Shown in pieces: positions 44,726-63,877 of a stretch of 64,000 nt of DNA. Made by a program: the position numbers and the translations under genes. The stretch's first letter is position 1, and every line of letters starts with the position of its first letter. The DNA comes from Candidatus Lindowbacteria bacterium RIFCSPLOWO2_12_FULL_62_27 (GTDB lineage Bacteria; Lindowbacteria; 2-12-FULL-62-27). The stretch spans positions 1-64,000 of the forward strand of contig MFPR01000006.1 in assembly GCA_001784175.1 (NCBI GenBank), in the 5' to 3' direction. The notes under the pieces were generated by a model, which was not told the origin of the DNA, searched no databases, and saw only the letters and a program-made list of their open reading frames with translations.

Positions 44726-44739
44726 TCCGCACCCGGTAT

Positions 44740-44811
44740 TGGGGCGTCGCCAAGCGGTAAGGCAGCGGCCTTTGGAGCCGTTATTCGCAGGTTCGAATCC
44801 TGCCGCCCCAG
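44740..44811 (+). tRNA. tRNA-Gln (anticodon TTG); CCA not encoded
   Basis: TGGGGCG/CGCCCCA acceptor stem, GCGGC-CTTTGGA-GCCGT anticodon arm, GGTTCGAATCC T-arm. Confidence 0.96.
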
Positions 44812-44918
44812 GTTGTTGACACGTCAAGCAGTCATAGAAATTTGAAGAACTTACGAAACAAGACGGACTTCGAAACATTTTTACCCATCTCACGGAATCT
44901 CACCCGATCTCACGCTAT

Positions 44919-44942
44919 AGTTGGCACTTATTTGGCACCAAA
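44919..44942 (+). repeat. Left-end copy of the 24-bp motif AGTTGGCACTWATTTGGCACCAAA (putative integrase arm-type sites)
   Basis: Second copy at 63751-63774 with 1 mismatch; contains tandem TTGGCAC. Confidence 0.7.
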
Positions 44943-48268: not shown

Positions 48269-49492
48269 ATGGAAGAAGAATCAATTGCGGAAGTTCCGGC
48301 CCTGCCGGTTCTGGATGAAGATGCGGTGATCAGCGGTGCGGAGTGGGAACGCGCCTATGGCGAAAAAATTGAGCACATGCTGAATCTGGACACATGGAAA
48401 AGCGGTGACGATCTGCCCGGCCTATTGGAGCGATTGGACCGGGAGATCGGAGAGGCACTTTCACAAGAGGATAATCTTCAGAGACAGATTCGGGACTTGT
48501 TGTTCCCCAGAATCGGCAAACAAAAGGGCGCCCCGAAAAATGCGGGCGTTTACCAGGCCACGGCCGATCAGTTGGATCGTGTCTATCGCAAAATTCTGTT
48601 TAATGGCGGAGTCGAAGCCTGTGATGGAACAAGCCTCGTCCATGACACTCTGCCCATGACCATCATCCAGATCGGGGTGTGCCTTGTGTCCTATCATGGA
48701 GAGCAGGGATCGTGGATCCAGCGTTTTTACAGGCGTGATTTGCGCGTCCGCGGGACTGATATCGTGGATGAAGCCCTTAAGATTCTTGGGCAACGAGAGC
48801 GCAAAGATTCGCGCGGCAAACCTCTTCGCATGAAAATGACAGAACTCAGCAAGAGAGGAATCATGGCCTACGCGGAGCGGGCCGCGCTCCTGCAAAAATG
48901 CACGGCGCCTTGGAGAATGGGGCAAGGAAACCCGGCGCCTTATGAGCTTTTGACCGGCTCTGGCAGTCCGGAACTGATTGAGCAGAGTCTGCCGATTCTT
49001 GAAGAGTTGATCGGACACATCAAAAGATTTGTGTTTATTCCAAGCTCGACGACCAATGTTTTGATTCAAACGATTGGCCAGGCTCTGCGTCCCCTTGAAT
49101 TCGCTATTGTGGATACCGAAGCCCATCGGATAGGCGCGCTGGTAGACAGAGGCCACTACAGAGGCGATCAGTATCGAGCGCAGAAGGAGCGTTTGGATGC
49201 ATTCGTACAGGATTTGGGTCCGCAGATCGTGGTGGGCGTCTACCGAGCTACCCATGAGGCGCCTGCGCAAGTGTTCTACGCGCATGAGGAGCACGCGCAG
49301 GAAGCGGCGCTCATTGCGATGGCGGACAGCGCCCTGCAGGCGCATCGCGGATTTCCGATGCTGATCGACATTGCGGATTCCATTTGTAGCGGGGCCTTCG
49401 GGCTGGACGGATTCAATTCCAGTATCCAGAGCGCCTATGCGAAGCACGGCCAGCCCCTGCGTTATCTGGGCGAGAGGGAAACCCGTCGGTAA
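48269..49492 (+). CDS. NurA-like (RNase H fold) nuclease
   Basis: ACDGT, AYAER, C-terminal GFPMLIDIAD (compare the NurA GYP..L..A motif); directly before HerA. Confidence 0.65.
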   Translation: MEEESIAEVPALPVLDEDAVISGAEWERAYGEKIEHMLNLDTWKSGDDLPGLLERLDREIGEALSQEDNLQRQIRDLLFPRIGKQKGAPKNAGVYQATADQLDRVYRKILFNGGVEACDGTSLVHDTLPMTIIQIGVCLVSYHGEQGSWIQRFYRRDLRVRGTDIVDEALKILGQRERKDSRGKPLRMKMTELSKRGIMAYAERAALLQKCTAPWRMGQGNPAPYELLTGSGSPELIEQSLPILEELIGHIKRFVFIPSSTTNVLIQTIGQALRPLEFAIVDTEAHRIGALVDRGHYRGDQYRAQKERLDAFVQDLGPQIVVGVYRATHEAPAQVFYAHEEHAQEAALIAMADSALQAHRGFPMLIDIADSICSGAFGLDGFNSSIQSAYAKHGQPLRYLGERETRR

Positions 49493-49563
49493 ATTTTTCG
49501 GATGTTGTCGAACTTTCCGTGGCCGGCGGGAATAAAGAGAGGACAACAAAAAAGGAGGCTGAC

Positions 49564-51456
49564 ATGGAAACTGAAACAAGCGGTTCGTCAACATTGGCGG
49601 ATAAGAAAGATTGGAAACCAGGCACCGTCTCATCCGAAACCATGGAAGGAATAGACGCTGTCGCGGAAGAGGTGGGAGCGGAATATACATCCCTGCCCGA
49701 ACACGAGGGCGCGATTGCGTTCACCCATTTTGATACGCCGAGCAGCGAGGACCACCGCATCACGGTCCTCCTGACAAAGGAAAATATGGCATCCATGCCT
49801 CTTCAGTCCCTTGTTCGGATAAAAAGCCTGGAGGACAGCAGATCTTACATCGGGAGCGTGACCGCCGGGCCGTTTGCCGAACCCGATGGCCTCCGGGCGG
49901 ATTCGCCCATTGTTGTGACAACGACCGTCAAGGGCAAAATATTTCTGCCGCGCTATCACGGGCGTGCTTACGTATCGATTCTTGGGGAAGAATCAAACAA
50001 TCAGATGTTGCCGCCCCGTTTCCGGCCTCGGCCGAACAGTCCGGTATTCCCTCTCACGACCGAGGAAACCATGAAGGCGCTGAAAATCGGGGGAGATATT
50101 CGGATTGGGAACATGGTGGGTGTCGACAATCTGGTGGTTTCGATCCCGTCGAAACGTAAAGATGTCCTTCCGCGTCACACAGGGATTTTTGGAACGACCG
50201 GCGGCGGTAAATCGACGACCAACTCCGGCCTCATCAGCAAACTTCACCGCGCGGGCGTGGCCACGATCGTGATTGATGTGGAGGGTGAATATGTGGAGAG
50301 CGACCAGCCCACGGCCGATCCCCAAATGAAGGAAGGGCTGGCCAAACTCAATCTTCCGAGAGACGTCGTGGCCGATCTTCGGGTTTATCACTTGGAAGGC
50401 CGGGAGACGAACCGGGAAATCCCGGGGAAACTCCATCCTTTTTGTTTGAAATTTTCAGACATCTCCCCGTATGCGGTCAAGGAGATTTTGGAACTGACCG
50501 AGCCACAGGAACAACGTTTTTTCAAAACCTATGACACGCTCAAAATCATTCTGGAACGTCTCAAGATTTATCCGCGGACGTCGGATGAAAAGACCGAGGC
50601 GCTGGAGATTGACGAATTTGATACGGGTTATCCACATGTGACGATTAGCCAGATGATTGATTTGGCCGGCGTGTTTCTTGCCCAGTTGGACGAGGATAAG
50701 AATTCTAAAAAAACAAAAACGTCGGATTCGGGCGAACAGAGGGTGTACCCCACGTGGACATCGGAGTTTCGAGGACATGAGGATGTTTTGAAATCCTGCG
50801 CCGCGCAGGCGCAGGCCCTTGGCATTCCCATCAGCTGGCGCGCCCTACTGGTTCATTTGTGGAAGGTGGCGCGATTGAAAGTGTTCGACAATCCCAAAGC
50901 GCCGGCGCTCAATTACGAGGATCTGATTCACCCGGGTCGGGTATCGGTGTTCGATCTTTCGGATACCGGATCGCCGCGAGTCAACAATCTGGTCATTTCG
51001 GATATTTTGCGCGGCGTACAGGCGGCGCAGGAGGCTAGCTACAAGGAGGCCGTTAAACGTGGCGTCGCGCCGAGTCCCGTCGTCATCATCATCGAGGAGG
51101 CGCACGAATTTTTGTCCGACCAGCGCATCAAGCAGATGCCCATCCTGTTTCAGCAGGTTGCCCGGATCGCCCGGCGTGGCCGCAAGCGCTGGCTGGGGCT
51201 TGTCTTTTCGACACAGATGCCCCAGCACCTGCCGGACGAGGTTCTGGGTCTGCTCAATAATCACGTCATTCACAAGATATCGGATTCTCACGTGATCGAC
51301 CACCTGCGAAAATCGCTGGGCGGATTCGACGCCGGCATATGGAAAATGGTTCCGAGCCTGGCTCCCGGTCAGGCCGTCGTATCCATGGCTCACATGGCGC
51401 GGCCGATCATGGTCAGCGTTGATCCGACTCCCTGCAGGCTCAAACTGTCCAACTGA
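49564..51456 (+). CDS. HerA/FtsK-superfamily ATPase with N-terminal HAS-barrel-like region
   Basis: H.GIFGTTGGGKS, IDVEGEY, IIEEAHEF, ARRGRK..LGL...TQ; AAGGAGG RBS. Confidence 0.9.
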   Translation: METETSGSSTLADKKDWKPGTVSSETMEGIDAVAEEVGAEYTSLPEHEGAIAFTHFDTPSSEDHRITVLLTKENMASMPLQSLVRIKSLEDSRSYIGSVTAGPFAEPDGLRADSPIVVTTTVKGKIFLPRYHGRAYVSILGEESNNQMLPPRFRPRPNSPVFPLTTEETMKALKIGGDIRIGNMVGVDNLVVSIPSKRKDVLPRHTGIFGTTGGGKSTTNSGLISKLHRAGVATIVIDVEGEYVESDQPTADPQMKEGLAKLNLPRDVVADLRVYHLEGRETNREIPGKLHPFCLKFSDISPYAVKEILELTEPQEQRFFKTYDTLKIILERLKIYPRTSDEKTEALEIDEFDTGYPHVTISQMIDLAGVFLAQLDEDKNSKKTKTSDSGEQRVYPTWTSEFRGHEDVLKSCAAQAQALGIPISWRALLVHLWKVARLKVFDNPKAPALNYEDLIHPGRVSVFDLSDTGSPRVNNLVISDILRGVQAAQEASYKEAVKRGVAPSPVVIIIEEAHEFLSDQRIKQMPILFQQVARIARRGRKRWLGLVFSTQMPQHLPDEVLGLLNNHVIHKISDSHVIDHLRKSLGGFDAGIWKMVPSLAPGQAVVSMAHMARPIMVSVDPTPCRLKLSN

Positions 51457-51458
51457 TC

Positions 51459-53168
51459 ATGCTGCCGGCCAATTCGTCAGATCCGCTGATTCCAGTTCGT
51501 GCATTGAATCAAATCAATTTTTGCGAACGGCTGTTTTACTTGCAATATGTCGAAGGTCTGATGGCAGTGAACGCCTACGTGGAGGACGGCAGCGTCAAAC
51601 ATCGCCGGATGGCGGAAATATCGGCTCCCTGCCAGCCGCGCATGGAGGATGGAGTGATACACACCCGAAGCGTCAGCCTCTCATCCGAGAGACTTGGGAT
51701 TACGGCCAAGCTCGACCTCGTCGAGGAAACAGACAACAAGATATTTCCTGTCGAATACAAGCGGTCAGCCGCGCCCGCCGGCGGAAACCCATGGTGGGAA
51801 AATGACGCGATCCAGCTGTGCGCCCAGGTTTTTCTTCTGGAAGAACATCTGGGAAAGGCGATCCATGAGGGCGTACTCTATTACATTGGATCGAAATCCA
51901 GGAGCGTCGTTCCGATGGACGCATCCCTTCGGGAGAAAACACTGCATGCCATTCGCCGCGCCCGGGAACTGTTCGCGTCTGACAAGACGCCGCCTCCTTT
52001 GCCGGTCGAAAAGGCTCACCGGTGTGAGGGGTGCTCGCTGGTGGCGATCTGTCAGCCGGAAGAGACAAGAATGTTGACCGGAATGAAGACGCTCCGGAGA
52101 AATGCGGCCTCCGGAGTGACACGAGTGATGCCGACGCGGAACGATGGCGCCGTGCTTTACCTCCAGGAGCAGGGATCGCGGGTTTCAAAGCAAAGCGAGC
52201 ACCTGATCGTGCGATGCGAGGGGAAAGAAATGCAAAAGGTTCCAATGGCGGCTGTCCGGCAGGTGCTGCTTTTTGGCAACGTCCAAATTTCGACGCAGAC
52301 CCTGGGATTGTTGCTTCAGCAGGAAGTGGACGTCACGATTTTGAGCGCACGGGGCCGGTTTATCGGCGCTGTGGTCCCGGCGCCCACGAAAAATGTCACG
52401 TTACGGGCGGAGCAATATCGACTGTTTTCAAATCCGGCGGCCACGTTGCGACTGTCACAAGCCTGCATTCGGGCGAAAATTTCAAATCAACGAACGCTGC
52501 TCATGCGGTCCCTGCGATCCAGGGGCGGGGATGTCAGCGTGCCGCGCGGAGGCGATTCCCCGGCGGCGGAGGAGATGGCGCGATTGGCAAATTCAGTTGA
52601 ACGCGTGGAAGACGCGGAAACACTGCTGGGAGTCGAAGGGCAGGCCGCTCACGTTTACTTTTCAAATTTTCAGCAGATGATCAAATCCGTCGGCGGCGGA
52701 TTTGATTTCCAGTTCCGCAACCGCCGTCCGCCCCGGGATCCCGTCAACGCCCTTCTCTCGCTCGCCTATTCGCTTTTGGCGAAAGACGCCTTCGCGGCCG
52801 TCCTGACGGTCGGATTCGATCCCTATCTTGGTTTTTACCATGGCTCAAAATTCGGCCGGCCATCTCTCGCCCTGGACATGATGGAAGAATTTCGGGCTGT
52901 GATCGCCGATTCAGTTGTCCTCACCGTGATCAACACCGGTGTTGTTCAGGAAGCCGATTTTCTTCGCTGGGGAAATGCCTGTCAGTTGACCGACCCCGCT
53001 CGAAAACGTTTTTTTGAGGCGTATGAACAGCGGAAGGCCGTTGAAATTACGCACCCTGTCTTCGGATACAAAATGACCTGCGGCCGGATGCTCGAAGTTC
53101 AGGCCCGCCTGCTTGCGGCGTTCGTGCGTGGAGACATTTCCGAATACAAGGGATTCACCGTTCGCTGA
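51459..53168 (+). CDS. cas1: Cas4-Cas1 fusion
   Basis: Cas4 part: C + D...PVEYKR + QLCAQ + CxxCxxxxxC. Cas1 part: GVEG.AA..YF, RRPPRDPVNA.LS, GF.H, LALD.MEEFR. Confidence 0.95.
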   Translation: MLPANSSDPLIPVRALNQINFCERLFYLQYVEGLMAVNAYVEDGSVKHRRMAEISAPCQPRMEDGVIHTRSVSLSSERLGITAKLDLVEETDNKIFPVEYKRSAAPAGGNPWWENDAIQLCAQVFLLEEHLGKAIHEGVLYYIGSKSRSVVPMDASLREKTLHAIRRARELFASDKTPPPLPVEKAHRCEGCSLVAICQPEETRMLTGMKTLRRNAASGVTRVMPTRNDGAVLYLQEQGSRVSKQSEHLIVRCEGKEMQKVPMAAVRQVLLFGNVQISTQTLGLLLQQEVDVTILSARGRFIGAVVPAPTKNVTLRAEQYRLFSNPAATLRLSQACIRAKISNQRTLLMRSLRSRGGDVSVPRGGDSPAAEEMARLANSVERVEDAETLLGVEGQAAHVYFSNFQQMIKSVGGGFDFQFRNRRPPRDPVNALLSLAYSLLAKDAFAAVLTVGFDPYLGFYHGSKFGRPSLALDMMEEFRAVIADSVVLTVINTGVVQEADFLRWGNACQLTDPARKRFFEAYEQRKAVEITHPVFGYKMTCGRMLEVQARLLAAFVRGDISEYKGFTVR

Positions 53169-53175
53169 CCGCTCC

Positions 53176-53463
53176 ATGCCGGAAACCCACATCGTTTCGT
53201 ATGATATTCGGCATCCCAAGCGTCTGCGCCGCGTCGCCAAGACATGCCAGGACTTTGGCTGCCGGCGCCAGCTCTCCGTGTTTTTGTGTAGAATCTCTCC
53301 GGTCGACCTGATACGGTTAAAAGATCGATTGAATGAGATCATTGATCGCAAGAACGACCAGATTCTGTTCATCCGGCTGTGCCAAAGTTGCGGCGATGGC
53401 ATCGAATCGCTCGGTCAGCCGACCTTGCGTCACGATGTCACGGATGTCTGTCTGGTGATCTGA
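53176..53463 (+). CDS. cas2: CRISPR-associated endoribonuclease Cas2
   Basis: IVSYDI..PKRLRRV.K....G.R.Q.SVF. Confidence 0.95.
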   Translation: MPETHIVSYDIRHPKRLRRVAKTCQDFGCRRQLSVFLCRISPVDLIRLKDRLNEIIDRKNDQILFIRLCQSCGDGIESLGQPTLRHDVTDVCLVI

Positions 53464-53471
53464 GGGTGCCT

Positions 53472-56400
53472 ATGGCCGTTAAAACCTATAAAGCTCGAAT
53501 CCATTTTGAATCCCTTCTGAAAGAACCCGCACAGGATCCCGCTCGCTTTCCGAACCGGGCAGCCGAGCTTCGCCAGTTGCTCTGGGATACGCACCGGGCT
53601 TTCAATCAGGGCGTCCGATATTTGATGCAGGAGCTGGTCTTGATGCGTCGTGGCGCCGGCGTCTGGAGAGAAAATTCATATGGAGTATGGAGGGAATGGG
53701 ACAAAATAAAAACATACGATCAGATTGTGGATATTCGCCGACGCATGTCCGCAACCCCGTCGTCAGTCCGTCTTTTGGAAAATCGGGAGCTTCTCGACCG
53801 ATTCCGTCAGGTTGTAAAATCTGAGTCGGAGGCGGTTGAATTGGCGAATGCGTGTTCCGTGATTTTTGATGCGATTTGCCAGCCGGCGGAAGATGGAGAA
53901 CTGGTTCAAATGCCGCGTGATGATCTGGATTTGCTGACCAACCTAAATTCAACTGCAAAGGGAATCCGGGAACGGGGTAAAACCAAAGAAGGGACGGACA
54001 AGAAAAAATCAGGACGAAAATCGTCATGGCCGATGGACAAGGCTGCATGGGAAACGGCGAAAACCTCCGATAGTTCGGCGCATTTTTTAGAGAAGTTGAA
54101 ACAGCACCCGGATTTAAAGGATGCGTTCGGAAACCTCAGTAGTGGTGGCTCGAAAAAACTGGAATATTATAAAAAACTTGCCGGCTCCGCGCCGTGGAAG
54201 GAGTCTCAATCCGTCATTTTGGAGAAAGCCGCGCGATGGAAAGAGGCGAAACAGGAGCGTGAAGAAAAGGAGCAAGATTCTTCCGAGCATGGTTCCAAGG
54301 CCGCTTATCGGCGGTTGTTTGACGCCGGCTGTCTGCCGATGCCTGAGTTTGCGAAATATATCGATGAGAACCAAATTGAATTTGGCGACCTGAAACTTAG
54401 TGATTGCGGGGCGGAATGGAAGCGCGGCATGTGGAATCAGGCGGGCCAGCGGGTGCGAAGTCACATGGGATGGCAGCGCCGGCGCGAAAAAGAAAATGCC
54501 GTCTATTCTTTAAGAAAGGAACTATTCGAAAAGGGCGGCGCCATTCGACGCAAGAAATCCGAAGAACTGACGCCGGAGGACATTTTACCCGGTAAGGCGG
54601 CTCCAGACCAGAATGATTGGCAGGAGCGGCCTGCCTATGGAAATCAGATGTGGTTCATCGGTCTGCGTTCCTATGAAGAAAATGAAATGGCCAAATATGC
54701 GGAAGAGGCCGGGATGGGTTCGCGGTCTGCTCCGCGAATTCGAAGGGGCACGATCAAAGGCTGGTCGAAGCTCCGCGAACGCTGGCTGCAGATTTTGAAA
54801 AGGAATCCGCAAGCGACTCGTGACGATCTGATCGGCGAGCTAAATGCCCTGCGCTCTCAAGACCCGCGGGCGTATGGCGACGCGCGGTTGTTTGATTGGT
54901 TGTCCAAGACGGATCAGAGATTTTTATGGGACGGTTTCGATGCGGATGGAAAAATTTTATGCGGGAGGGACGATCGTGACTGCGTCTCGGCATTTGTGGC
55001 GTATAACGAAGAATTCGCGGATGAGCCTTCGTCGATCACCTTGACGGAAACGGATGAACGTCTTCATCCCGTGTGGCCGTTTTTCGGCGAATCCTCGGCA
55101 GTGCCATACGAGATCGAATATGATTTGGAAACCGCTTGTCCGACGGCTATTCGATTACCCCTGCTGGTTGGCAAGGAGAACGGCGGATATGCGGAGAGAC
55201 AGGGGACTCGGTTGCCGCTTGCAGAATATGCGGATTTGGCCAGCAGTTTTCAATTGCCCACGCCTGTGCGGCTTGACGTCCTTGTAGAAATTCGAGAAGT
55301 CACAAGAGCCGGCAGGAAAGTGACATGCCCCTTTTCGTATTTTAAGCAGAATGGTGTTTGGTATGTCCGAGAGGGGGAGATTCCATCCGGAGAATCAATC
55401 CAGATCAAACAGACGGACCGCAAAATTGAAAATGGAAAAATATTCATTTCCTCCAAACTGCGAATGGCGTACCGGGACGATCTCATGGTGTCGCCTGCAA
55501 CCGGAGATTTTGGGAGCATCAAAATTCTTTGGGAGAGAATCGAACTGGCGTCGCATGTCGATCAGAAAAAACTGCCGGAAACAGCTCCCGCGCGTTCACG
55601 CGTTTTTGTCTCGTTCAGTTGCAATGTCGTGGAGCGGGCGCCGCGCAAACAACTGACCCGAAAGCCAGACGCCGTTGTGGTGACCATTCCAAGCGGTGTG
55701 GATCAGGGACTGGTTGTCGTCTCGACTGATGTCAGGACAGGGAAATCCAAATCTTCTTCCGCGCCGCCACTGCCGCCGGGATCGCGCTTATGGCCTGCCG
55801 ATGCCGTTCATGGTGATCCGCCTCTTCGTATTTTGAGTGTGGATTTAGGGCATCGTCATTCAGCCTATGCGGTGTGGGAGCTGGGTCTTCAGCAAAAGTC
55901 ATGGCGGGCCGGAGTCTTGAAGGGATCTACTCAAACTCCTGTTTATGCGGATTGTACGGGAACGGGACTGCTTTGCCTGCCGGGTGATGGAGAAGATACG
56001 CCGGCGGAGGAAGAATCCTTGCGTTTACGATCGCGGCAGATTCGCAGGCGGTTGAACCTGCAAAACTCCATCTTGCGCGTGTCGCGTCTTTTGTCGTTGG
56101 ATAAATTTGAAAAAACGATTTTTGAGCAGAGCGATGTCAGGGACAGGCCCAATAAAAAGGGATTGCGGATTCGCAGGCGTTGTCGCACAGAAAAAACTCC
56201 GCTCAGCGAGGCGGAAGTTCGGAAGAATTGTGACAAGGCCGCCGAGATATTGATCCGATGGGCTGATACGGACGCCATGGCCAAGTCGTTGGCGGCGACA
56301 GGGAACGCAGATATTTCATTCTGGAAATATATGGCAGTGAAAAATCCGCCGCTGTCGGCCGTTGTTGATGTGGCGCCATCGACGATTGTCCCTGACGATG

Positions 56401-58004
56401 GCCCGGATCGAGAAACGCTGAAAAAGAAACGGCAGGAGGAGGAAGAGAAATTCGCCTCCAGCATTTATGAGAATCGGGTGAAACTGGCCGGGGCTTTATG
56501 TTCCGGCTATGATGCCGATCATCGGCGGCCGGCGACAGGAGGATTATGGCATGATCTCGACCGAACATTGATTCGTGAAATCAGTTACGGGGACAGGGGC
56601 CAAAAAGGCAATCCGAGGAAGTTGAACAATGAAGGGATCCTTCGGCTTTTGCGCCGCCCACCCCGTGCCAGGCCTGATTGGCGTGAGTTTCATAGAACGT
56701 TAAATGACGCCAATCGGATTCCCAAGGGCCGGACTCTGCGAGGCGGACTGTCGATGGGCCGGTTAAACTTTCTGAAAGAAGTTGGTGATTTTGTCAAAAA
56801 GTGGTCATGCCGGCCGCGTTGGCCTGGTGATCGCCGCCATATTCCGCCCGGCCAACTATTTGATCGACAGGATGCCGAGCATCTGGAGCATCTCCGGGAC
56901 GACCGGATCAAACGTCTGGCGCATTTGATCGTCGCGCAGGCGCTTGGATTTGAACCGGACATCCGGCGTGGGTTGTGGAAATATGTGGACGGGTCGACCG
57001 GGGAAATATTGTGGCAGCATCCTGAAACGAGGCGCTTTTTCGCAGAAGGCGCCGCGGGTGAATTGCGGGAAGTCTCGCGGCCGGCTGAAATAGATGACGA
57101 TGCCGCGGCAAGACCCCACACGGTTTCAGCGCCGGCTCATATTGTAGTCTTCGAAAATCTCATCCGGTATCGATTCCAGTCGGACAGGCCGAAGACCGAG
57201 AACGCCGGCCTCATGCAGTGGGCGCACCGGCAGATCGTGCATTTCACCAAACAAGTGGCGTCTCTTTATGGCCTGAAAGTGGCCATGGTCTATGCGGCGT
57301 TCTCATCCAAATTTTGTTCACGTTGCGGTTCGCCGGGCGCCCGCGTCAGCCGTTTTGATCCTGCATGGAGAAATCAAGAATGGTTTAAACGTCGAACTTC
57401 GAATCCGCGAAGCAAGGTCGACCATTCGTTAAAGCGGGCATCGGAAGATCCAACGGCAGATGAAACCCGGCCGTGGGTTCTGATCGAAGGAGGCAAAGAA
57501 TTTGTATGCGCCAATGCCAAATGTTCTGCGCATGATGAACCATTAAATGCCGATGAAAATGCGGCGGCGAATATCGGACTGCGTTTTCTTCGGGGTGTCG
57601 AAGACTTCCGTACAAAGGTTAATCCGGCGGGAGCTCTCAAAGGGAAACTCAGATTCGAAACGGGAATCCATTCATTTCGACCGCCTGTGTCGGGATCGCC
57701 GTTCTGGAGCCCGATGGCAGAGCCGGCGCAAAAAAAGAAAATCGGAGCGGCGGCGCCCGGAGCGGATGTTGACGAAGCCGGGGATGCGGATGAAAGTGGC
57801 GTTGTGGTTTTGTTCCGTGATCCAAGCGGCGCCTTTCGGAACAAGCAATACTGGTATGAAGGCAAGATATTCTGGTCAAATGTCATGATGGCGGTCGAGG
57901 CCAAAATTGCGGGGGCAAGTGTTGGCGCAAAGCCTGTGGCGGCATCCTGGGGCCAAGCTCAACCGCAAAGCGGACCCGGACTCGCCAAACCAGGAGGTGA
58001 CTGA
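53472..58004 (+). CDS. cas12b: Type V-B effector Cas12b (C2c1), 1510 aa
   Basis: MAVK..K...LW.TH..FN.GVRY N-terminus; HPVW; RuvC SVDLG (D791), VFENL (E1228), NADENAA (D1361); GGLS..RL; next to cas4/1, cas2 and the array. Confidence 0.92.
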   Translation: MAVKTYKARIHFESLLKEPAQDPARFPNRAAELRQLLWDTHRAFNQGVRYLMQELVLMRRGAGVWRENSYGVWREWDKIKTYDQIVDIRRRMSATPSSVRLLENRELLDRFRQVVKSESEAVELANACSVIFDAICQPAEDGELVQMPRDDLDLLTNLNSTAKGIRERGKTKEGTDKKKSGRKSSWPMDKAAWETAKTSDSSAHFLEKLKQHPDLKDAFGNLSSGGSKKLEYYKKLAGSAPWKESQSVILEKAARWKEAKQEREEKEQDSSEHGSKAAYRRLFDAGCLPMPEFAKYIDENQIEFGDLKLSDCGAEWKRGMWNQAGQRVRSHMGWQRRREKENAVYSLRKELFEKGGAIRRKKSEELTPEDILPGKAAPDQNDWQERPAYGNQMWFIGLRSYEENEMAKYAEEAGMGSRSAPRIRRGTIKGWSKLRERWLQILKRNPQATRDDLIGELNALRSQDPRAYGDARLFDWLSKTDQRFLWDGFDADGKILCGRDDRDCVSAFVAYNEEFADEPSSITLTETDERLHPVWPFFGESSAVPYEIEYDLETACPTAIRLPLLVGKENGGYAERQGTRLPLAEYADLASSFQLPTPVRLDVLVEIREVTRAGRKVTCPFSYFKQNGVWYVREGEIPSGESIQIKQTDRKIENGKIFISSKLRMAYRDDLMVSPATGDFGSIKILWERIELASHVDQKKLPETAPARSRVFVSFSCNVVERAPRKQLTRKPDAVVVTIPSGVDQGLVVVSTDVRTGKSKSSSAPPLPPGSRLWPADAVHGDPPLRILSVDLGHRHSAYAVWELGLQQKSWRAGVLKGSTQTPVYADCTGTGLLCLPGDGEDTPAEEESLRLRSRQIRRRLNLQNSILRVSRLLSLDKFEKTIFEQSDVRDRPNKKGLRIRRRCRTEKTPLSEAEVRKNCDKAAEILIRWADTDAMAKSLAATGNADISFWKYMAVKNPPLSAVVDVAPSTIVPDDGPDRETLKKKRQEEEEKFASSIYENRVKLAGALCSGYDADHRRPATGGLWHDLDRTLIREISYGDRGQKGNPRKLNNEGILRLLRRPPRARPDWREFHRTLNDANRIPKGRTLRGGLSMGRLNFLKEVGDFVKKWSCRPRWPGDRRHIPPGQLFDRQDAEHLEHLRDDRIKRLAHLIVAQALGFEPDIRRGLWKYVDGSTGEILWQHPETRRFFAEGAAGELREVSRPAEIDDDAAARPHTVSAPAHIVVFENLIRYRFQSDRPKTENAGLMQWAHRQIVHFTKQVASLYGLKVAMVYAAFSSKFCSRCGSPGARVSRFDPAWRNQEWFKRRTSNPRSKVDHSLKRASEDPTADETRPWVLIEGGKEFVCANAKCSAHDEPLNADENAAANIGLRFLRGVEDFRTKVNPAGALKGKLRFETGIHSFRPPVSGSPFWSPMAEPAQKKKIGAAAPGADVDEAGDADESGVVVLFRDPSGAFRNKQYWYEGKIFWSNVMMAVEAKIAGASVGAKPVAASWGQAQPQSGPGLAKPGGD

Positions 58005-58021: not shown

Positions 58022-58306
58022 ATGAGAATTAAAGGCCTGATCTGGCTGGAAGAATATATCGATAAACTCGAGCACAAGCACCAATTGACGCAGGAGGAAG
58101 TCAGAGAGATTTTCAAAAACCAGCCTCGTTTCCGATATGTTGAAAAAGGCGCCCAAGAGGGGGAGAATGTGTATGTGGCGAAGGGGCAGACGGAGGCGGG
58201 TCGGTATGTGAGTGTGTTTTTTATTTATAAAAAAACGGGCTGGGCATTGGTTATCTCAGCGCGAGAGATGAAACCGAAGGAGAAAAAGAGATATGAAAAA
58301 AGGTAG
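58022..58306 (+). CDS. BrnT family toxin
   Basis: W......KL..KH.L..EE..E.F...G.T..GR......VISAR.M..KE...Y. Confidence 0.85.
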   Translation: MRIKGLIWLEEYIDKLEHKHQLTQEEVREIFKNQPRFRYVEKGAQEGENVYVAKGQTEAGRYVSVFFIYKKTGWALVISAREMKPKEKKRYEKR

Positions 58307-58568
58307 AGGTTCGATTTCTGGAGGTAAAACGTACAAGCAGATCGGCGAGTTTTGGGACACGCACGATCTTGGCGACTATTGGGCCCGGACACGACCCGCA
58401 TCCTTCGAAGTCGATCTCCAAGCCGAAATGACGTATTGTCCCCTGGAAAGGGATTTGTCGAAGAAAATCCGTTCCATCGCCCAGCGGCAGGGCGTTACGC
58501 CCGATACGCTGGTGAATCTGTGGTTGCAAGAAAAAGTGCAGACGCAAGTTCAGGAGAAGATGGCATAG
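58293..58568 (+). CDS. BrnA/CopG-type antitoxin
   Basis: EFWDTHD..DY followed by RHH-like IA...GV....LVN.WL.E; overlaps the toxin gene. Confidence 0.85.
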   Translation: MKKGRGSISGGKTYKQIGEFWDTHDLGDYWARTRPASFEVDLQAEMTYCPLERDLSKKIRSIAQRQGVTPDTLVNLWLQEKVQTQVQEKMA

Positions 58569-58689: not shown

Positions 58690-58860
58690 ATTTGTTTTCA
58701 CTCAAAGTGTGTCTTCGGCCTCCCAGGCATGGCACAGCCTAGCCGAATTCGGGGGTGTTAGGTTCACGGTCTATTGGCCGTGAACTTAATCCCGCCTAAC
58801 CGCGGGACGACTGAGTGGAGTCAGCTGTTATGAGGAGGATTTTCAAAGCAGGTGTCCAGA
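58690..58860 (+). ncRNA. Putative Cas12b tracrRNA (ends approximate)
   Basis: Anti-repeat GCTGTTATGAGGAGGA (58824-58839) pairs 15/16 with the repeat; GTGTC (58709-58713) is complementary to the repeat 3' end; closing stem TTCACTCA/TGAGTGGA; three internal hairpins. Confidence 0.75.
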
Positions 58861-59056: not shown

Positions 59057-59677
59057 GAGGAAATTTCCTCCTCACAACAGCGGGCTTGGACACTACGGAG
59101 ATAGTCACGGATTGTCTCCTGTGTTGTGAGGAAATTTCCTCCTCACAACAGCGGGCTTGGACACGGATCATCCTCTGGTCAACGGGTCTTTGGATCGTCG
59201 TGAGGAAATTTCCTCCTCACAACAGCGGGCTTGGACACAATTCCTTTACGATCTGGCCACAGCATCAGGCCACGGAGGAAATTTCCTCCTCACAACAGCG
59301 GGCTTGGACACAGCCCGCCGCCGACCTCGGCCAGCACCGGCGCGGTGAGAGGAAATTTCCTCCTCACAACAGCGGGCTTGGACACTTTCTTTTCCATGCT
59401 CGATACTCCTTCATCGACATGAGGAAATTTCCTCCTCACAACAGCGGGCTTGGACACTTATGACATAACCCGGACTAGCATTGTCTGTTAGTTGAGGAAA
59501 TTTCCTCCTCACAACAGCGGGCTTGGACACGCGTTGCAGTAACTGCGATATGCAGTTGCCCGATATGAGGAAATTTCCTCCTCACAACAGCGGGCTTGGA
59601 CACTCTAAACCTACATCTTCTCTACCTAATCATCCACGAGGAGGAAATTTCCTCCTCACAACAGCGGGCTTGGACAC
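59057..59677 (+). CRISPR. CRISPR array: 9 identical 37-bp repeats GAGGAAATTTCCTCCTCACAACAGCGGGCTTGGACAC and 8 spacers of 34-37 bp
   Basis: Repeats start at 59057, 59128, 59202, 59275, 59349, 59421, 59494, 59567 and 59641. Orientation inferred from the Cas12b-like ..GGACAC 3' end and the anti-repeat. Confidence 0.98.
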
Positions 59678-59796
59678 AGAAATTTTTCGTGCCAGTATTT
59701 CCCGGCTGGCAGGCCGTGCGGCGAGGGGCCGCCTGAGATCGCGGGTGGTGGACTCGCTCTCGCGTGTCCTTGACCGCCTATCATGTGGTTGATTTT

Positions 59797-61454
59797 ATGC
59801 TGGGGATGAATCAGGAATTGGAGCAAGCCCGGCTTGAAATCGAGAGACTGAAAAATGAAAACGCGGAACTTCGAAAAACGCTGGGATTGCTGCCTGCCGA
59901 ACCACAGCCCCACCTCGAAATGGGCATTCGCGAAGTTGTGATCGATTCCATGCCATTGCCCTCAATGACAAAAGATTCGCCTACAAAAGAAAAAGTCGCG
60001 TTGTTCCGAATGCTTTTCAGAGGCAGGGACGATGTATATGCGCTCCGTTGGGAGAATGAACGAACAGGCAAGAGAGGTTATTCCCCGGTGCGCGAGGGAG
60101 GGGCGGTCGGGAAAGCGGCCAGGTCAAAAAAATGTTTGCCGCTGACGGATCGGGCCGTCCAGGATCATTTGTCCGGCGAGAAGATCATCGGCGCCTATCC
60201 GCTGCTCTTGGACAATACTTGCTGGTTTCTTGCATGCGATTTTGACAAGGAGGGGTGGACGCTGGATTCGCCGGCATATCTGAATGTCTGCAATCGATAT
60301 GGAGTGCCGGCCTGTCTGGAGCGATCGCGGTCGGGTAATGGCGGCCATGTGTGGATTTTTTTTTTTCGTCACCCATTTCGGCGACTTCGGCCAGACAGTT
60401 GGGGATGCGATTGCTTCGAGAAACAATGGTTGTGCGCGGCGAGATGGATCTCGCCAGTTACGACCGATTTTTTCCGAATCAGGACTTTGTCCCCAAAGGC
60501 GGATTTGGAAATCTCATCGCCCTGCCGCTCCAGAAGAAATGCCGGCAGCTTGGAAACACGGAATTCGTAAACCCGCAGGATTCGGTTCTTCGGCCATGGT
60601 CGGACCAGTGGGCTTTTCTAAGCCAGGTCAAACGGATTTCCCCTATCCATGTAGATGCCTTGCTTGAAACAATCCCGCCTATCGCCGTGGGGTTGGGATC
60701 TGCGGCCAGGGGTTCCGCCGAATTGCGCCGCATCCTCGGCCTCACGGCAACACCATACCGCCGTGACGGATTGCAAGGGATAATCGAGATGCAGTGTGGT
60801 CCGATCCGATACCGGATGCCGTCGGCGAAAAGCGGCATGACGGTCCATTTGATCGAGAGGCCGACAAATTTTTCATACCACTCGTTCGATCTCGCGAGTC
60901 CGGCCATACAGGATATTTTTGGCGCTCTGGTCAAAGACAATTCCCGAAATGCGCTGATCCTGGAGGATGTGCGGCAGGCGCTGTCACAGAAGGGGCATTG
61001 CCTGATGCTGACCCACAGAAAAGAGCATTGCCAATTGCTCGCTGAAGGGCTGGCCAGATCCGGCGTAAATCCATTTATACTGACCGGCGATCTAGGCAAA
61101 AAAGAACGGACAGCCATCATCAAGGAGATTCAGAATATGTCTTCCGACAAAGAATTCCTCATCATCGCCACAGGCCAGTACCTCGGCGAGGGATTCGACT
61201 GTCCGCAGGTCGACACACTTTTCCTGGCATTCCCCATTTCGTTCAAGGGCAATCTGGTTCAATACGTCGGGAGGACTCTGCGAACTCGCGAGGGCAAAGA
61301 GCGCGTTCGGATTTATGACTATGTGGACGCGGAAGTGCCCGTGCTCAAGAGAATGTTCGGCAAGCGCGTCAAGGCGTATAAATCTCTTGGTATCAGCGTG
61401 GATGACGAAGAGGAAGCATCGCAGAAATACACTTTACCGAATCTCGAATCTTAA
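59797..61454 (+). pseudogene. Frameshifted and internally deleted AEP-primase-like / SF2 helicase fusion
   Basis: CDFD...ERSRSGNGGHVWIFF, then a frameshift at a T11 run (60356-60366). Helicase motifs III-VI are present (GLTATP, EGFD.P, QYVGR) but Walker A and DEAH are missing. Confidence 0.8.
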
Positions 61455-61497
61455 ATTTGCTTTTAGGGTGATTCTGGCATATCAAACGAAATGTTGA

Positions 61498-62556
61498 TTA
61501 CCTCGGCCGATCGAGGTCGGTTCGCATTTGTCCGATTTTTCCGGCGTTGAATTTTTCCTCGACCGCTGCCAGGTGCGTCATCATCGCAGCGAAAGGCGGC
61601 GGCGTGGACATGAACATGTCCGTCATATCCCGGTAGTCTCGCTCGATCTGCTGACGCCGATCGGGTGCAGGCGCCAGATGGAAACTGCCGGGCATGGCCG
61701 TATCATAGTGCGCCCATGCCGAGCGGAAAAAAGACTGTTTGTGTTTGCGCACTCGGGTCAACAGGTCAATGTCCGCCAGGGCGCGTTCTCCGGCGGGATT
61801 TCGGCTCAAGCAATACATATCGTAATAGTGCCGCGAAATGCCGATGGCCGGCGGCTTGTCCGCGGGACGATGATACTCGGCATGCAGGATCGTCGCCTTC
61901 TCCCAGAAAGTTCGTTCGGCTTCGAGAGCGACAACCGGACACGATGCCGCGCGAAACAAGTCGGAGAAGACATCCGCCACGATCGGTGTAATCGTGTGAG
62001 CGGCCACCGGCCGCTGGTCGTAGAGCGCGCCAAATTCCAGTTTCACCTGTGGTCGCAGAGATCCCGTTATCTTGCCGGATCGAGGGTAAGCGAATAGGAT
62101 GACCGGTGAGTGCGTCGCGGCGTCCACTTCGAACTCAAGCGCTGACGCCTGCGTGCCGGGCAACTTGGCAGTAATGTGGCGGGCCAGGACAGGCATGAAG
62201 CGGTCGCGAACCACCGTAATGCAGGCCTCCTCAAGAACCTTGGTACGCTTGTCGTGCTGTGAACGACTGGATGCGGCGTCCGGCCGCATGTCCCCGCCGA
62301 AGCCAAGCCAATCAGGGTCGACGGCAAGGTCAATGTCTTCGGAAAAGCGCTGGATGATGCCAAATACTTTCGAGAGCGATGTGCCGCCTTTGAAAATCAG
62401 GCGACCTCCCAATTCGGGATCGGAAAAAATCACTCCGAGAAGCCAGCACACCCAGAAATCCTTTTCGACGATATGGCTGCCAATGCTCCGGCGGGCACCG
62501 GCTTCCTCAAACACTGCAGACTGCTCCGGGGTCGGTGTTCGCGCAAACTCAAGCAT
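61498..62556 (-). CDS. abiEii: AbiEii-family nucleotidyltransferase toxin (type IV TA)
   Basis: EKDFW, FKGGTSLSK, RFSEDIDL, RTFWEK..ILH, RHYYD. Confidence 0.92.
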   Translation of the reverse strand: MLEFARTPTPEQSAVFEEAGARRSIGSHIVEKDFWVCWLLGVIFSDPELGGRLIFKGGTSLSKVFGIIQRFSEDIDLAVDPDWLGFGGDMRPDAASSRSQHDKRTKVLEEACITVVRDRFMPVLARHITAKLPGTQASALEFEVDAATHSPVILFAYPRSGKITGSLRPQVKLEFGALYDQRPVAAHTITPIVADVFSDLFRAASCPVVALEAERTFWEKATILHAEYHRPADKPPAIGISRHYYDMYCLSRNPAGERALADIDLLTRVRKHKQSFFRSAWAHYDTAMPGSFHLAPAPDRRQQIERDYRDMTDMFMSTPPPFAAMMTHLAAVEEKFNAGKIGQMRTDLDRPR

Positions 62557-63163
62557 TCGGTGGTGTCCTCCGGCATATTTCCAATAGATATGGGCGCATC
62601 CACGCCGGCGCGCGGATACGGTCCTTCGTCAGACATTGCTTGTCTTTCGTGTCCAATTTTTTCCGGAGTATTCCAACATGCCGGCTGGTCAACCGATCTT
62701 TGCCGACAAACCTCAATGCCTGAATCACGATTCCGCTTGTGCGGCCGGCGGTCGCCATAGTTCGGGGTGTGGCGCGTTTCAAAATGATCTCCCGCCCGCC
62801 AATCTTCACGCGCCGGGATATCCCGTCCGTCAGATACACGATCCGGGCCGGGACCTGTTCGGACAAGCCAAGCAGGTTTGCGGCGAAAGCGCCGGATGGC
62901 TGCATTCGGATGGCCCGGCTTCTGGACAGGGCGCGGGCTATCGCATCCGGATCGGGCGCCATCTGACCGAGTCGGGGATGGATGCGAGGAAAGTCGTAAA
63001 GTCCCTGCGCCAAACGGCGGATGGCCTTGCGCCGGGCTTGGCGATGCAATGCCGTCCAAACCGCGCCGTCTCCGCCCAAGTCGGCAAAGTCGGCTGGTGT
63101 AAAGCACCAACCTCTGCCTCTACCTCGGATACGCGCGGCCATCATTTTTTCGATATGTTTCAT
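62549..63163 (-). CDS. abiEi: AbiEi-family antitoxin / transcriptional repressor (DUF6088-like)
   Basis: FTP.DF.DLG...AL.R....IRR..QGLY, AAN.LGLS.QVP, YLTDG; overlaps the toxin gene. Alternative start at 63178. Confidence 0.88.
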   Translation of the reverse strand: MKHIEKMMAARIRGRGRGWCFTPADFADLGGDGAVWTALHRQARRKAIRRLAQGLYDFPRIHPRLGQMAPDPDAIARALSRSRAIRMQPSGAFAANLLGLSEQVPARIVYLTDGISRRVKIGGREIILKRATPRTMATAGRTSGIVIQALRFVGKDRLTSRHVGILRKKLDTKDKQCLTKDRIRAPAWMRPYLLEICRRTPPNA

Positions 63164-63181
63164 GGATTTCGGCTCCATTTC

Positions 63182-63218
63182 TGTAAGGAATTATAATCAA
63201 TTTTCCTTACAAATGCAA
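63182..63218 (-). promoter_or_regulatory. abiE promoter with inverted-repeat operator
   Basis: Minus strand TTGCAT (63218-63213)-N17-TATAAT (63195-63190); inverted repeat TGTAAGGAA (63182-63190) / TTCCTTACA (63203-63211). Confidence 0.8.
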
Positions 63219-63219
63219 A

Positions 63220-63256
63220 GAGGAAATTCTCTCCGCACAACGGTAGGCTTGGACAC
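63220..63256 (+). CRISPR. Solitary degenerate CRISPR repeat, 31/37 identical to the array repeat
   Basis: GAGGAAATTCTCTCCGCACAACGGTAGGCTTGGACAC; same length and orientation as the array repeats. Confidence 0.9.
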
Positions 63257-63316
63257 CCTGTAATTTCGTGTGACGTAGGTTGACTCATATATGGATTCCA
63301 TTCTAATAATCGCTCT

Positions 63317-63658
63317 GTGAAAAAGATCAAACTTCGAGACAATGAAACGGTGCTTGAGGATGAGGCGGCACGACTATATCGCGTGGATGTACCCGCGCTC
63401 CGGCGTTCCCTGGGACGAAACAAAAAGCGATTTCCGGGCGGCGCTGTGTTTCAATTGACCAAATCAGAGATGACAGCACTCGGCTTGAAATTTGTCCGAT
63501 CCAGATCGGCGCCGTATGCGTTCACTCGATTCGGATACATCATGCTCGCCAACATCCTCAACAGCCCTACGGCCATCAAGGCGCACATCCGAAGAATCAG
63601 GAGTGTTTGCCGGCACCTGTCTTTTGAGGCGATTATCAGGATGATTGCCGGTCAATAG
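63317..63658 (+). CDS. ORF6N-domain DNA-binding protein, divergent or short
   Basis: R...VL...A.LY.V....L....RN..RFP...FQLT..E...PYAFT..G..MLA..L.S..A. Confidence 0.8.
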   Translation: MKKIKLRDNETVLEDEAARLYRVDVPALRRSLGRNKKRFPGGAVFQLTKSEMTALGLKFVRSRSAPYAFTRFGYIMLANILNSPTAIKAHIRRIRSVCRHLSFEAIIRMIAGQ

Positions 63659-63750
63659 CGGAGGGTCGCACAATTCATTTTTAGAAAATCTCATTCCCAA
63701 GCGGCCTTCAAAAAACTTACGAAAAACTTACAAAAACTTTGGATGCAAAA

Positions 63751-63774
63751 AGTTGGCACTAATTTGGCACCAAA
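63751..63774 (+). repeat. Right-end copy of the 24-bp motif AGTTGGCACTAATTTGGCACCAAA
   Basis: Matches 44919-44942 at 23/24 positions. Confidence 0.7.
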
Positions 63775-63825
63775 TCGAAAATGGACTTTTGTAACCCATT
63801 CATTTATGAGCGACTAACAAAAATC

Positions 63826-63877
63826 AGGCAGCGGCCTTTGGAGCCGTTATCCGCAGGTTCGAATCCTGCCGCCCCAG
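63826..63877 (+). repeat. attR: 52-bp duplicate of the tRNA-Gln 3' portion
   Basis: 51/52 identical to 44760-44811; lacks the tRNA 5' end. Confidence 0.95.

Follow-up and report, generated by a model that had tools for sequence, protein, structure and literature searches.

Standalone repeat-like sequences occur in significant excess in CRISPR-cas loci of types I, II, III and V, and the text of Shmakov et al. 2023 (PMC10120712) describes many of them as partly degraded and their generation and loss as dynamic. In the CRISPR-supervised immune systems described in the text of a recent preprint (10.1101/2024.12.27.630466), solitary repeat units give rise to CRISPR RNA (crRNA)-like RNAs (crlRNAs) that repress the promoters of defence genes; the type I-C match, as in the Nezha case, is 16 base pairs (bp) with one mismatch, plus TTC. 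The CreTA and CreR elements share the idea that loss of the effector de-represses a toxin, as the texts on them put it (10.1101/2023.03.10.532045; PMC10120712), while RNA anti-CRISPRs (Racrs) are portrayed as solitary repeat units of viruses and plasmids (PMC10651486). Here we describe a solitary degenerate repeat, referred to as the orphan repeat, in DNA of Candidatus Lindowbacteria bacterium RIFCSPLOWO2_12_FULL_62_27 (GCA_001784175.1, contig MFPR01000006.1). The stretch analysed, called the window, is 64,000 nucleotides (nt) long and makes up the first 64 kb of this contig (C6) in a 4.39-Mb genome. The orphan repeat stands at the edge of an abiE toxin-antitoxin promoter, beyond a type V-B array, and is probably a decaying relic of the trailer end of that array, or of a second or earlier array, rather than a working guide RNA gene.

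A solitary repeat beyond a type V-B array

The window encodes on its + strand a complete type V-B locus, consisting of Cas12b, Cas4/Cas1, Cas2, an array and the anti-repeat of a trans-activating CRISPR RNA (tracrRNA), with the leader and the tracrRNA on the cas12b side of the array. The elements that bear directly on the orphan repeat are the following.

58814 to 58845, + strand: anti-repeat of the putative tracrRNA, with a best predicted duplex with the array repeat of -35.4 kcal/mol
59057 to 59677, + strand: CRISPR array of nine identical 37-nt repeats (GAGGAAATTTCCTCCTCACAACAGCGGGCTTGGACAC) and eight spacers of 34-37 nt
63220 to 63256, + strand: orphan repeat, a solitary degenerate copy of the V-B repeat, 31/37 identical to the array repeat and its sole extra match in the genome
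63257 to 63292, + strand: spacer-like sequence of 36 nt behind the orphan repeat, overlapping TTGACT at 63280-63285

The orphan repeat is 37 nt long, has the same strand and orientation as the array repeats and differs from them by six mismatches. A Hamming scan with the array repeat, run over both strands of the 44 contigs (4,388,263 bases) and allowing up to 11 mismatches, gave ten matches in the whole genome, namely the nine array repeats and the orphan repeat. An earlier reading of the window from its sequence alone, without database searches (the sequence-only reading), had pointed to a solitary 31/37 copy 3.5 kb from the array, and the scan bears this out. By our own estimate, a 37-mer with at most six mismatches arises by chance at ~1e-13 per position, and the match is not a chance one because only ~8e-7 are expected genome-wide. 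The substitutions fall at positions 10, 11, 16, 23, 25 and 26, five of them being transitions and one a transversion. The 3' terminal 11 nt (GGCTTGGACAC) are unchanged from the array repeat, as the same reading had noticed, and the changes are confined to positions 10-26. The spacer-proximal end that crRNA-like regulators keep is accordingly intact here, in the last 11 of the 37 nt. This intact end is not significant, since the probability that six changes all fall within the first 26 of 37 positions is 0.10 (own estimate).

In its position, the orphan repeat agrees with a trailer repeat in lying on the + strand, on the leader-distal side and downstream of repeat 9, but it begins 3,542 nt past repeat 9, beyond the trailer end of the array, where a trailer repeat would follow at one spacer length (34-37 nt). 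No further relic repeats were found at array spacing on either side of it, the match being 8-11/37 at the expected registers and 15/37 at the nearby maximum. A relic is favoured because the orphan repeat shares strand and orientation with the array and lies to the trailer side of it, and because no second extra copy exists in the genome.

The DNA between the array and the orphan repeat

The intervening DNA (59678-63219) is 3,542 nt long and comprises 92 nt, a PrimPol-helicase gene, abiEii and abiEi, and the abiE promoter. Its features, together with the gene beyond the orphan repeat, are listed below.

59719 to 59755, + strand: possible tenth repeat, strongly degenerate (18/37), 41 nt past repeat 9
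59764 to 61454, + strand: broken PrimPol (archaeo-eukaryotic primase, AEP)-helicase gene, frameshifted near 60360 and lacking 717 nt by internal deletion
61498 to 62556, - strand: abiEii, nucleotidyltransferase toxin (Pfam PF08843, E 1e-36; PADLOC AbiEii, E 1.5e-97)
62549 to 63178, - strand: abiEi, antitoxin/regulator, DUF6088 (Pfam PF19570, E 9e-39; PADLOC AbiEi, E 1e-62)
63182 to 63211, no strand assigned: inverted repeat TGTAAGGAA-N12-TTCCTTACA spanning the abiE -10 box, candidate AbiEi operator
63190 to 63219, - strand: predicted abiEi-abiEii promoter, -35 TTTGCA/TTGCAT and -10 TATAAT, scoring 10/12 in the promoter scan
63317 to 63658, + strand: ORF6N-domain gene, divergent from abiE (Pfam PF10543, E 7e-14)

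The relic reading is also preferred because this DNA is itself decaying, as seen from the frameshift and the deletion in the PrimPol-helicase gene. An intact paralog of 853 amino acids (aa), with 87% nucleotide identity, lies on contig C27 (G000:C27:72556-75117), and comparison with it shows that the 717-nt deletion takes out the ResIII/DEAD domain. Since the paralog fits the PADLOC model for cas-associated PrimPol (E 4e-85), the broken gene may formerly have served the locus as an accessory gene. Differences between the two copies fall preferentially at third codon positions (22/23/75 and 28/16/44), which places the breakage as recent relative to the divergence of the copies. Dating the orphan repeat against this divergence (13% against 16%) was attempted and rejected, because the same bias puts most of the divergence in the functional period, before the gene broke. 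The neighbours of the C27 copy are a type I restriction-modification system, a SEC-C-motif protein and an integrase.

The adjacent abiEi and abiEii genes, with a putative inverted-repeat operator over their promoter, make up a type IV toxin-antitoxin module. AbiEi regulators control their own expression, and by analogy the inverted repeat at 63182-63211 is likely the AbiEi operator; the true start of abiEi may be the ATG at 63163, which is preceded by GGAG. In a consensus promoter scan, the sole promoter-like site of the intergenic region that holds the orphan repeat is the - strand abiE promoter, with TTTGCA at 63219-63214, an 18-nt spacer and TATAAT at 63195-63190 (score 10/12). A paralog of abiEi on contig C17 has the same promoter layout, with the common motif TTGCATTTGTAA..AAAATTG, and its alignment gives an alternative -35 box, TTGCAT at 63218-63213. 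Under either choice of box, 0-1 nt separate it from the start of the orphan repeat, so that the distance of 1 bp given by the sequence-only reading holds by both the scan and the C17 alignment. Similarity to the C17 paralog sets in exactly at the -35 box, with none upstream of the box, on the side of the orphan repeat; the orphan repeat is therefore not part of the AbiE module and merely abuts it.

The first 14 nt of each array repeat (59057-59070 in repeat 1) form a perfect palindrome, GAGGAAATTTCCTC, whose core AGGAA/TTCCT resembles the arms AAGGAA/TTCCTT of the AbiEi operator. This likeness is probably a coincidence. In the orphan repeat, the palindrome is disrupted by the changes at positions 10-11.

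Neither the leading 92 nt nor the junction segments of the intervening DNA have homologs elsewhere in the genome. Within the 92 nt, the segment at 59719-59755 could be the decayed terminal repeat of the array itself, if it is real; this is suggestive only, and a match of at least 18/37 to the repeat is reached by 0.16% of genome positions. The repeat pair excepted, 59678-63219 is bordered by neither terminal inverted repeats nor target duplications, and no break in composition was seen at its borders. The sequence-only reading had offered, as an alternative, that the orphan repeat is the old trailer repeat and that 59678-63219 was inserted into the last spacer. The first half of this proposal comes near the explanation preferred here, whereas the insertion could not be shown, there being no visible remnant of a spacer on the right side and a possible tenth repeat at 59719-59755. 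It is also problematic because no room is left for such a remnant by the conserved abiE promoter, whose end is 1 nt from the repeat. Three routes of separation are possible: the last spacer may have taken an insertion, the terminal unit may have been duplicated, or the repeat may be left over from an array that was replaced or collapsed.

Seven DNA runs and 0 RNA runs are listed, and the population comparison covered four of the seven, one from each of four studies. Metagenome contigs over 60977-63867 showed no differences, the region being recovered as a single piece in X1, X2 and X3 and as two overlapping pieces in X5. Neither an allele free of the insert nor a joint between the array end and the orphan repeat was seen in these runs. 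A joint 59056>59641, present in X2 and X3, was considered as an allele and rejected, being read as a collapse of repeats during contig assembly. A Cas12b query against metagenomes returned three loci, all 100% identical to the window, and the same query found no match among viral contigs. In the genome collection, no other array with this repeat was detected by an IUPAC pattern of the 3' 21 nt, which diverged arrays may escape; the pattern gave two single matches, both apparently coding and about the number expected by chance.

The same junctions can be viewed as the DNA footprint of a repeat-directed capture of cargo by recombination at a repeat, for example from a circular element that carried a diverged repeat, or as the last repeat of an older, related array after cassette exchange. 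The 3,542 bp of 59678-63219 lie exactly between two copies of the repeat, in the manner of a spacer, with the end of repeat 9 (59677) as left boundary and, as right boundary, the point, 1 nt from the orphan repeat, at which C17 similarity stops, although the C17 comparison cannot fix the native end of the AbiE module. The 26 nt next to the insert contain all six differences, leaving the distal 11 nt identical, the pattern expected of a crossover within the repeat, but 11 nt of identity is short for homologous recombination. The seven nucleotides that are identical and in register after both repeats fit this view as well, and the text of PMC10120712 discusses repeat remnants as recombination targets in the recapture of CRISPR loci. 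On the other hand, the borders lack the inverted repeats, target duplications and change in composition that would mark an insertion, and neither an insert-free nor an alternative allele appeared in the four metagenome runs of the four studies. Capture of this kind is unlikely. It is kept as a separate explanation because the differences of the orphan repeat would then be ancestral and not a product of decay; it overlaps with the relic reading, as the orphan repeat is still a relic or footprint and differs in origin alone.

The tRNA-Gln island

The reading of the orphan repeat as a relic draws further on its surroundings, whose borders are as follows.

44739 to 44812: tRNA-Gln gene, left border of the island
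63826 to 63877, + strand: 52-nt direct repeat of the 3' part of tRNA-Gln, right border of the ~19-kb island

Because tRNA-Gln and the copy of its 3' end flank it, the whole CRISPR locus is assigned to a cargo island of ~19 kb at a tRNA integration site, which also carries a DNA methylase, a HerA-family ATPase and further genes. A third copy of the tRNA-Gln 3' end is found at C6:64624-64669. In a genome from a different genus of this family (G003), the right-hand border is shared, with 90% identity over 167 nt, but the cargo at tRNA-Gln is quite different, namely an AAA ATPase, a two-component system, PAP2 and an EptA-like transferase. Four genomes of the phylum are in the collection, and Cas12b was found in 0/3 of the others. 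No integrase, phage or plasmid genes were recognized among the island open reading frames (ORFs) scanned, and the sole Rfam match is a sub-threshold tRNA at 63809-63869. The region is reshuffled, horizontally acquired cargo, and the flanking tRNA-Gln copies, the different cargo of G003 and the lack of Cas12b in the three other genomes are thus a further reason to regard the orphan repeat as a relic.

Pairing, targets and transcription of the orphan unit

The sequence-only reading had proposed a Cas12b-loaded regulatory RNA linking CRISPR status to AbiE. An RNA of this kind, comparable to crlRNA, CreR or CreA, would be transcribed from the + strand, paired with the tracrRNA, loaded into Cas12b and directed by partial complementarity to a promoter, coupling the state of the CRISPR system to AbiE or to another defence or cargo gene. 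The unchanged 3' 11 nt of the repeat are in its favour. So are the precedents in types I-B, I-C, I-E, I-F and V-A and the fact that the text of PMC10120712 counts toxin-antitoxin cargo of CRISPR loci among the predicted targets of mini-arrays. Three kinds of evidence bear on the proposal: pairing with the tracrRNA, a target, and a promoter.

The anti-repeat lies in a non-coding stretch between a BrnT/BrnA-like pair and the array. It is the sole complement of the repeat outside the array with a local score of at least 15, a score reached by 0/20,000 background windows. A search for an alternative anti-repeat by energy only was abandoned as unspecific, since windows rich in GC attain -35 to -40 kcal/mol by chance. 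Pairing with the anti-repeat is predicted to weaken from -35.4 kcal/mol for the array repeat to -25.7 kcal/mol for the orphan repeat, a loss of 9.7. Among random variants with six substitutions (n=3,000), 65% pair with the anti-repeat at least as well as the orphan repeat does, and the share is 82% for variants with five transitions and one transversion. With changes restricted to positions 1-26, it is 46%, or 71% with the observed mix of transitions. Opposite G, U and G of the anti-repeat, the orphan repeat has changes at positions 11 (C>U), 23 (A>G) and 25 (C>U), respectively, and to this extent the G-U pairs described in the sequence-only reading are present. These wobble-compatible changes count for a regulator, as does the fact that the observed bases rank in the best 15% of the combinations possible at the changed positions. 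However, C>U and A>G transitions always give wobble pairs, and for this reason three wobbles among five duplex changes are what neutral decay would produce. The stronger claim, that pairing with the tracrRNA is specially preserved, fails, because 65-82% of random variants do equally well or better; the pairing of the orphan repeat is down to the level of random variants.

A target for the spacer-like sequence was sought in the island, in the genome and in viral, phage and plasmid collections. The protospacer adjacent motif (PAM) of other Cas12b enzymes is TTN, and TTN was taken as the PAM here by assumption, not by derivation for this Cas12b. The eight array spacers, searched with the aim of deriving the PAM, had no protospacer within their own genome, and comparison of the array with the phage collection gave nothing meaningful (two matches at E 0.7). 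For the 36 nt after the orphan repeat, there is no exact match of at least 14 nt elsewhere in the genome, and the two exact matches of 13 nt are about the number expected by chance. Against positions 44000-66000, no match was obtained at thresholds from 12 nt with one mismatch through 24 nt with seven mismatches. The island maxima are 9/12 and 12/16, or 8/12 next to a TTN motif, to be compared with a mean best of 9.74 for 12 nt in shuffled guides, and no island match exceeds the shuffled guides, with or without the motif. An exact 23-mer of the spacer-like sequence had 0 matches in viral contigs, and the 36-mer had none in the phage and plasmid collections. When the whole region from AbiE to ORF6N was compared with plasmids, distant matches to abiEii coding sequence alone were returned and nothing for the intergenic part. 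A target for 63257-63280 next to a T-rich PAM, which the sequence-only reading had suggested looking for, is thus not borne out, nothing beyond chance having been found; under the TTN assumption, no PAM-adjacent partial complementarity to the promoter of a cas, toxin or defence gene near the locus was detected.

A 7-mer, TTTCGTG, occurs at 59685-59691 and again at 63264-63270, that is, at +8 to +14 behind repeat 9 and likewise behind the orphan repeat. The in-register identity has P ~9e-4 for one comparison; the bordering bases do not match, and overall identity is 9/40. Within the same spacer-like sequence, the hexamer TTGACT at 63280-63285 may, judging from its sequence, be the -35 box of the ORF6N gene.

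A + strand TATAAT can be read at 63192-63197, inside the candidate operator, and had been suggested to transcribe the repeat. The hexamer is indeed there and is a point for a regulator, but the + strand hexamers 17-18 nt upstream of it match TTGACA at 2/6, and no + strand promoter for the orphan repeat was called in the consensus scan of 63100-63260. No terminator that would frame a small RNA at the orphan unit was found in the scan.

The orphan repeat is considered a relic because its spacer-like sequence is without a target, no + strand promoter or terminator accompanies it and its pairing is unremarkable. These same results leave the proposed link between CRISPR status and AbiE without support, and a crRNA-like regulatory RNA is quite unlikely. 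If it nevertheless existed, a weak promoter embedded in the operator would transcribe the orphan unit, the intact 3' end and the wobble pairs would bind the tracrRNA, and Cas12b would be sent to a target missed under the assumed PAM and mismatch rules. No V-B element of the kind was found in the literature on solitary repeats, whose supplementary lists might hold some. It is very doubtful that the solitary-repeat regulators of class 1 and V-A systems have in the orphan unit their first counterpart that depends on a tracrRNA (V-B, Cas12b), one that would tie AbiE to the CRISPR state.

The ORF6N domain is common in mobile elements. A Racr-type decoy that arrived with mobile AbiE/ORF6N cargo and soaks up tracrRNA or Cas12b would account for a solitary repeat mimic beside an ORF6N-domain gene in a horizontally acquired island, but it is highly improbable: the orphan repeat is carried not by an attacking virus or plasmid but by cas12b's own tRNA-Gln island, and so shares the island with the system to be inhibited, the scanned island ORFs yielded neither integrase nor phage genes, no promoter was called, its tracrRNA pairing is weakened, and for tracrRNA-dependent systems none was found described in the literature on such elements, as far as that literature's main accounts go.

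The orphan repeat as a probable decaying relic

In the history that is preferred here, rearrangements of the island would have left the PrimPol-helicase gene and the AbiE module between the array and one repeat unit. Once detached from the array and without a detectable promoter of its own, this unit would have gained six substitutions, which weakened its pairing with the tracrRNA about as random changes would, and the abiE promoter would simply adjoin it. The orphan repeat appears to be untranscribed and functionless, a view that, like the manner of its separation, is inferred. None of the sequence-based arguments for function rises above the expectation from neutral decay.

Several observations weigh against a relic. 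The last 11 nt, which are perfect, are the guide-adjacent part of a V-B crRNA. The orphan repeat stands exactly at the edge of a defence-gene promoter, between two regulated genes. The bases it carries at the six substituted sites are among the best 15% of 729 combinations for pairing with the anti-repeat. Degenerate terminal repeats usually decay at the trailer-proximal 3' end, and the orphan repeat is mutated in its 5' part instead. The possible tenth repeat at 59719-59755, if real, would mean that the better-preserved orphan repeat needs a separate origin, though this is suggestive only. The shared TTTCGTG hints at duplication of the terminal unit, a route that the text of PMC10120712 proposes as an origin of functional mini-arrays. 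Type I-C solitary repeat units repress the promoters of defence systems, according to the text of the preprint (10.1101/2024.12.27.630466). Finally, the neutrality of the orphan repeat is something that we infer.

Neighbouring genes of the island

The cas genes and the gene pair between cas12b and the array are as follows.

51459 to 53168, + strand: cas4-cas1 fusion (NCBIfam NF049935, 670 bits)
53176 to 53463, + strand: cas2 (Pfam PF09827, E 4.5e-21)
53472 to 58004, + strand: cas12b, 1510 aa (NCBIfam NF033949, 960 bits)
58022 to 58568, + strand: BrnT/BrnA-like toxin-antitoxin pair between cas12b and the tracrRNA/array region

With 1510 aa, Cas12b is unusually long, and its similarity to solved structures of C2c1 is distant (E ~1e-27 over the RuvC part); a solved C2c1-like protein of 1496 aa, 9kln, also matches it. 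The collections contain no relative of it short of 100% identity. Three toxin-antitoxin modules lie within 7 kb of the array, namely BrnT/BrnA, AbiE and a PIN gene past the island border. The latter belongs to a second mini-island, C6:63878-64669, which holds an 88-aa ORF and the PIN-domain gene and ends in the third tRNA-Gln copy. Directly upstream of cas4-cas1, at 48269-51456, a HerA-family ATPase of 645 aa is preceded by an ORF of 407 aa that has no Pfam, NCBIfam or PADLOC match, and the two could form a defence pair of HerA type whose second member is unrecognised. A 24-nt direct repeat is found close to either end of the island (44919-44942 and 63751-63774, 23/24 identical), and each copy contains TGGCAC-N5-TGGCA, resembling a sigma-54 promoter by eye, and has a AACTTACGAAA motif upstream.

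Comparison with known systems

What the orphan repeat means depends on which explanation holds. As a relic, it is one more ectopic repeat that was shed and degraded, it records the reshuffling of a defence island, and it matters little. If a regulator were true, a Cas12b-guided switch on an abortive-infection module would extend CRISPR supervision to class 2. For the tracrRNA-dependent V-B type, no solitary-repeat regulator or decoy was found in the literature, although supplementary lists might include some. The case also carries a caution, as an intact 3' handle and wobble-compatible changes persuade by eye, yet here they match transition-biased neutral decay.

Among the systems introduced at the outset, the CRISPR-supervised ones (10.1101/2024.12.27.630466) resemble the orphan unit in that a solitary unit adjoins a non-cas defence module in a CRISPR-cas locus and has kept the 3' end of the repeat. 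In the text of that preprint, the spacer-like part of such units matches a PAM site upstream of the regulated genes, and the orphan unit is without such a match. The supervised systems are moreover of class 1 (I-C, with I-F and I-B as candidates), in contrast to the V-B locus of the orphan repeat, and AbiE, V-B and Cas12b each have 0 mentions in that text. The CreTA and CreR elements (10.1101/2023.03.10.532045; PMC10120712) likewise have a degenerate repeat beside a toxin-antitoxin or cas promoter, but the spacer-like part of CreA and CreR is described as complementing the toxin or cas promoter, usually with two flanking repeat-like sequences. The orphan unit has one repeat, no complementarity and a protein toxin-antitoxin system with its own antitoxin-repressor. 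As no target of the required kind was found, the orphan repeat falls outside the crlRNA, CreR and CreA class.

The Racrs as portrayed in the text of PMC10651486 are, like the orphan repeat, solitary repeat mimics in horizontally acquired DNA. They ride on attacking viruses and plasmids, however, whereas the orphan repeat shares an island with the cas genes and has no detectable promoter, and it is placed outside this class for these reasons. A degenerate terminal repeat is similar to it in orientation, in lying on the trailer side and in being mutated while the other repeats are identical. It differs from an ordinary terminal repeat in being 3,542 bp away and in being mutated at the 5' part and not at the trailer-proximal 3' end, and it is not counted as one because of the 3.5 kb that separate it from the array.

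The closest likeness is with the standalone repeats described in the text of PMC10120712, which also lie outside the array, are intergenic within a CRISPR-cas locus and are partly degraded. A degenerate repeat together with a solitary unit is interpreted there as the remnants of a lost V-A locus. The positive cases of that work, from type I and V-A, were recognised by their conservation among related loci, while the orphan repeat belongs to a tracrRNA-dependent V-B system. With this difference, the orphan repeat fits the class of standalone, often degraded repeat-like sequences of CRISPR-cas loci.

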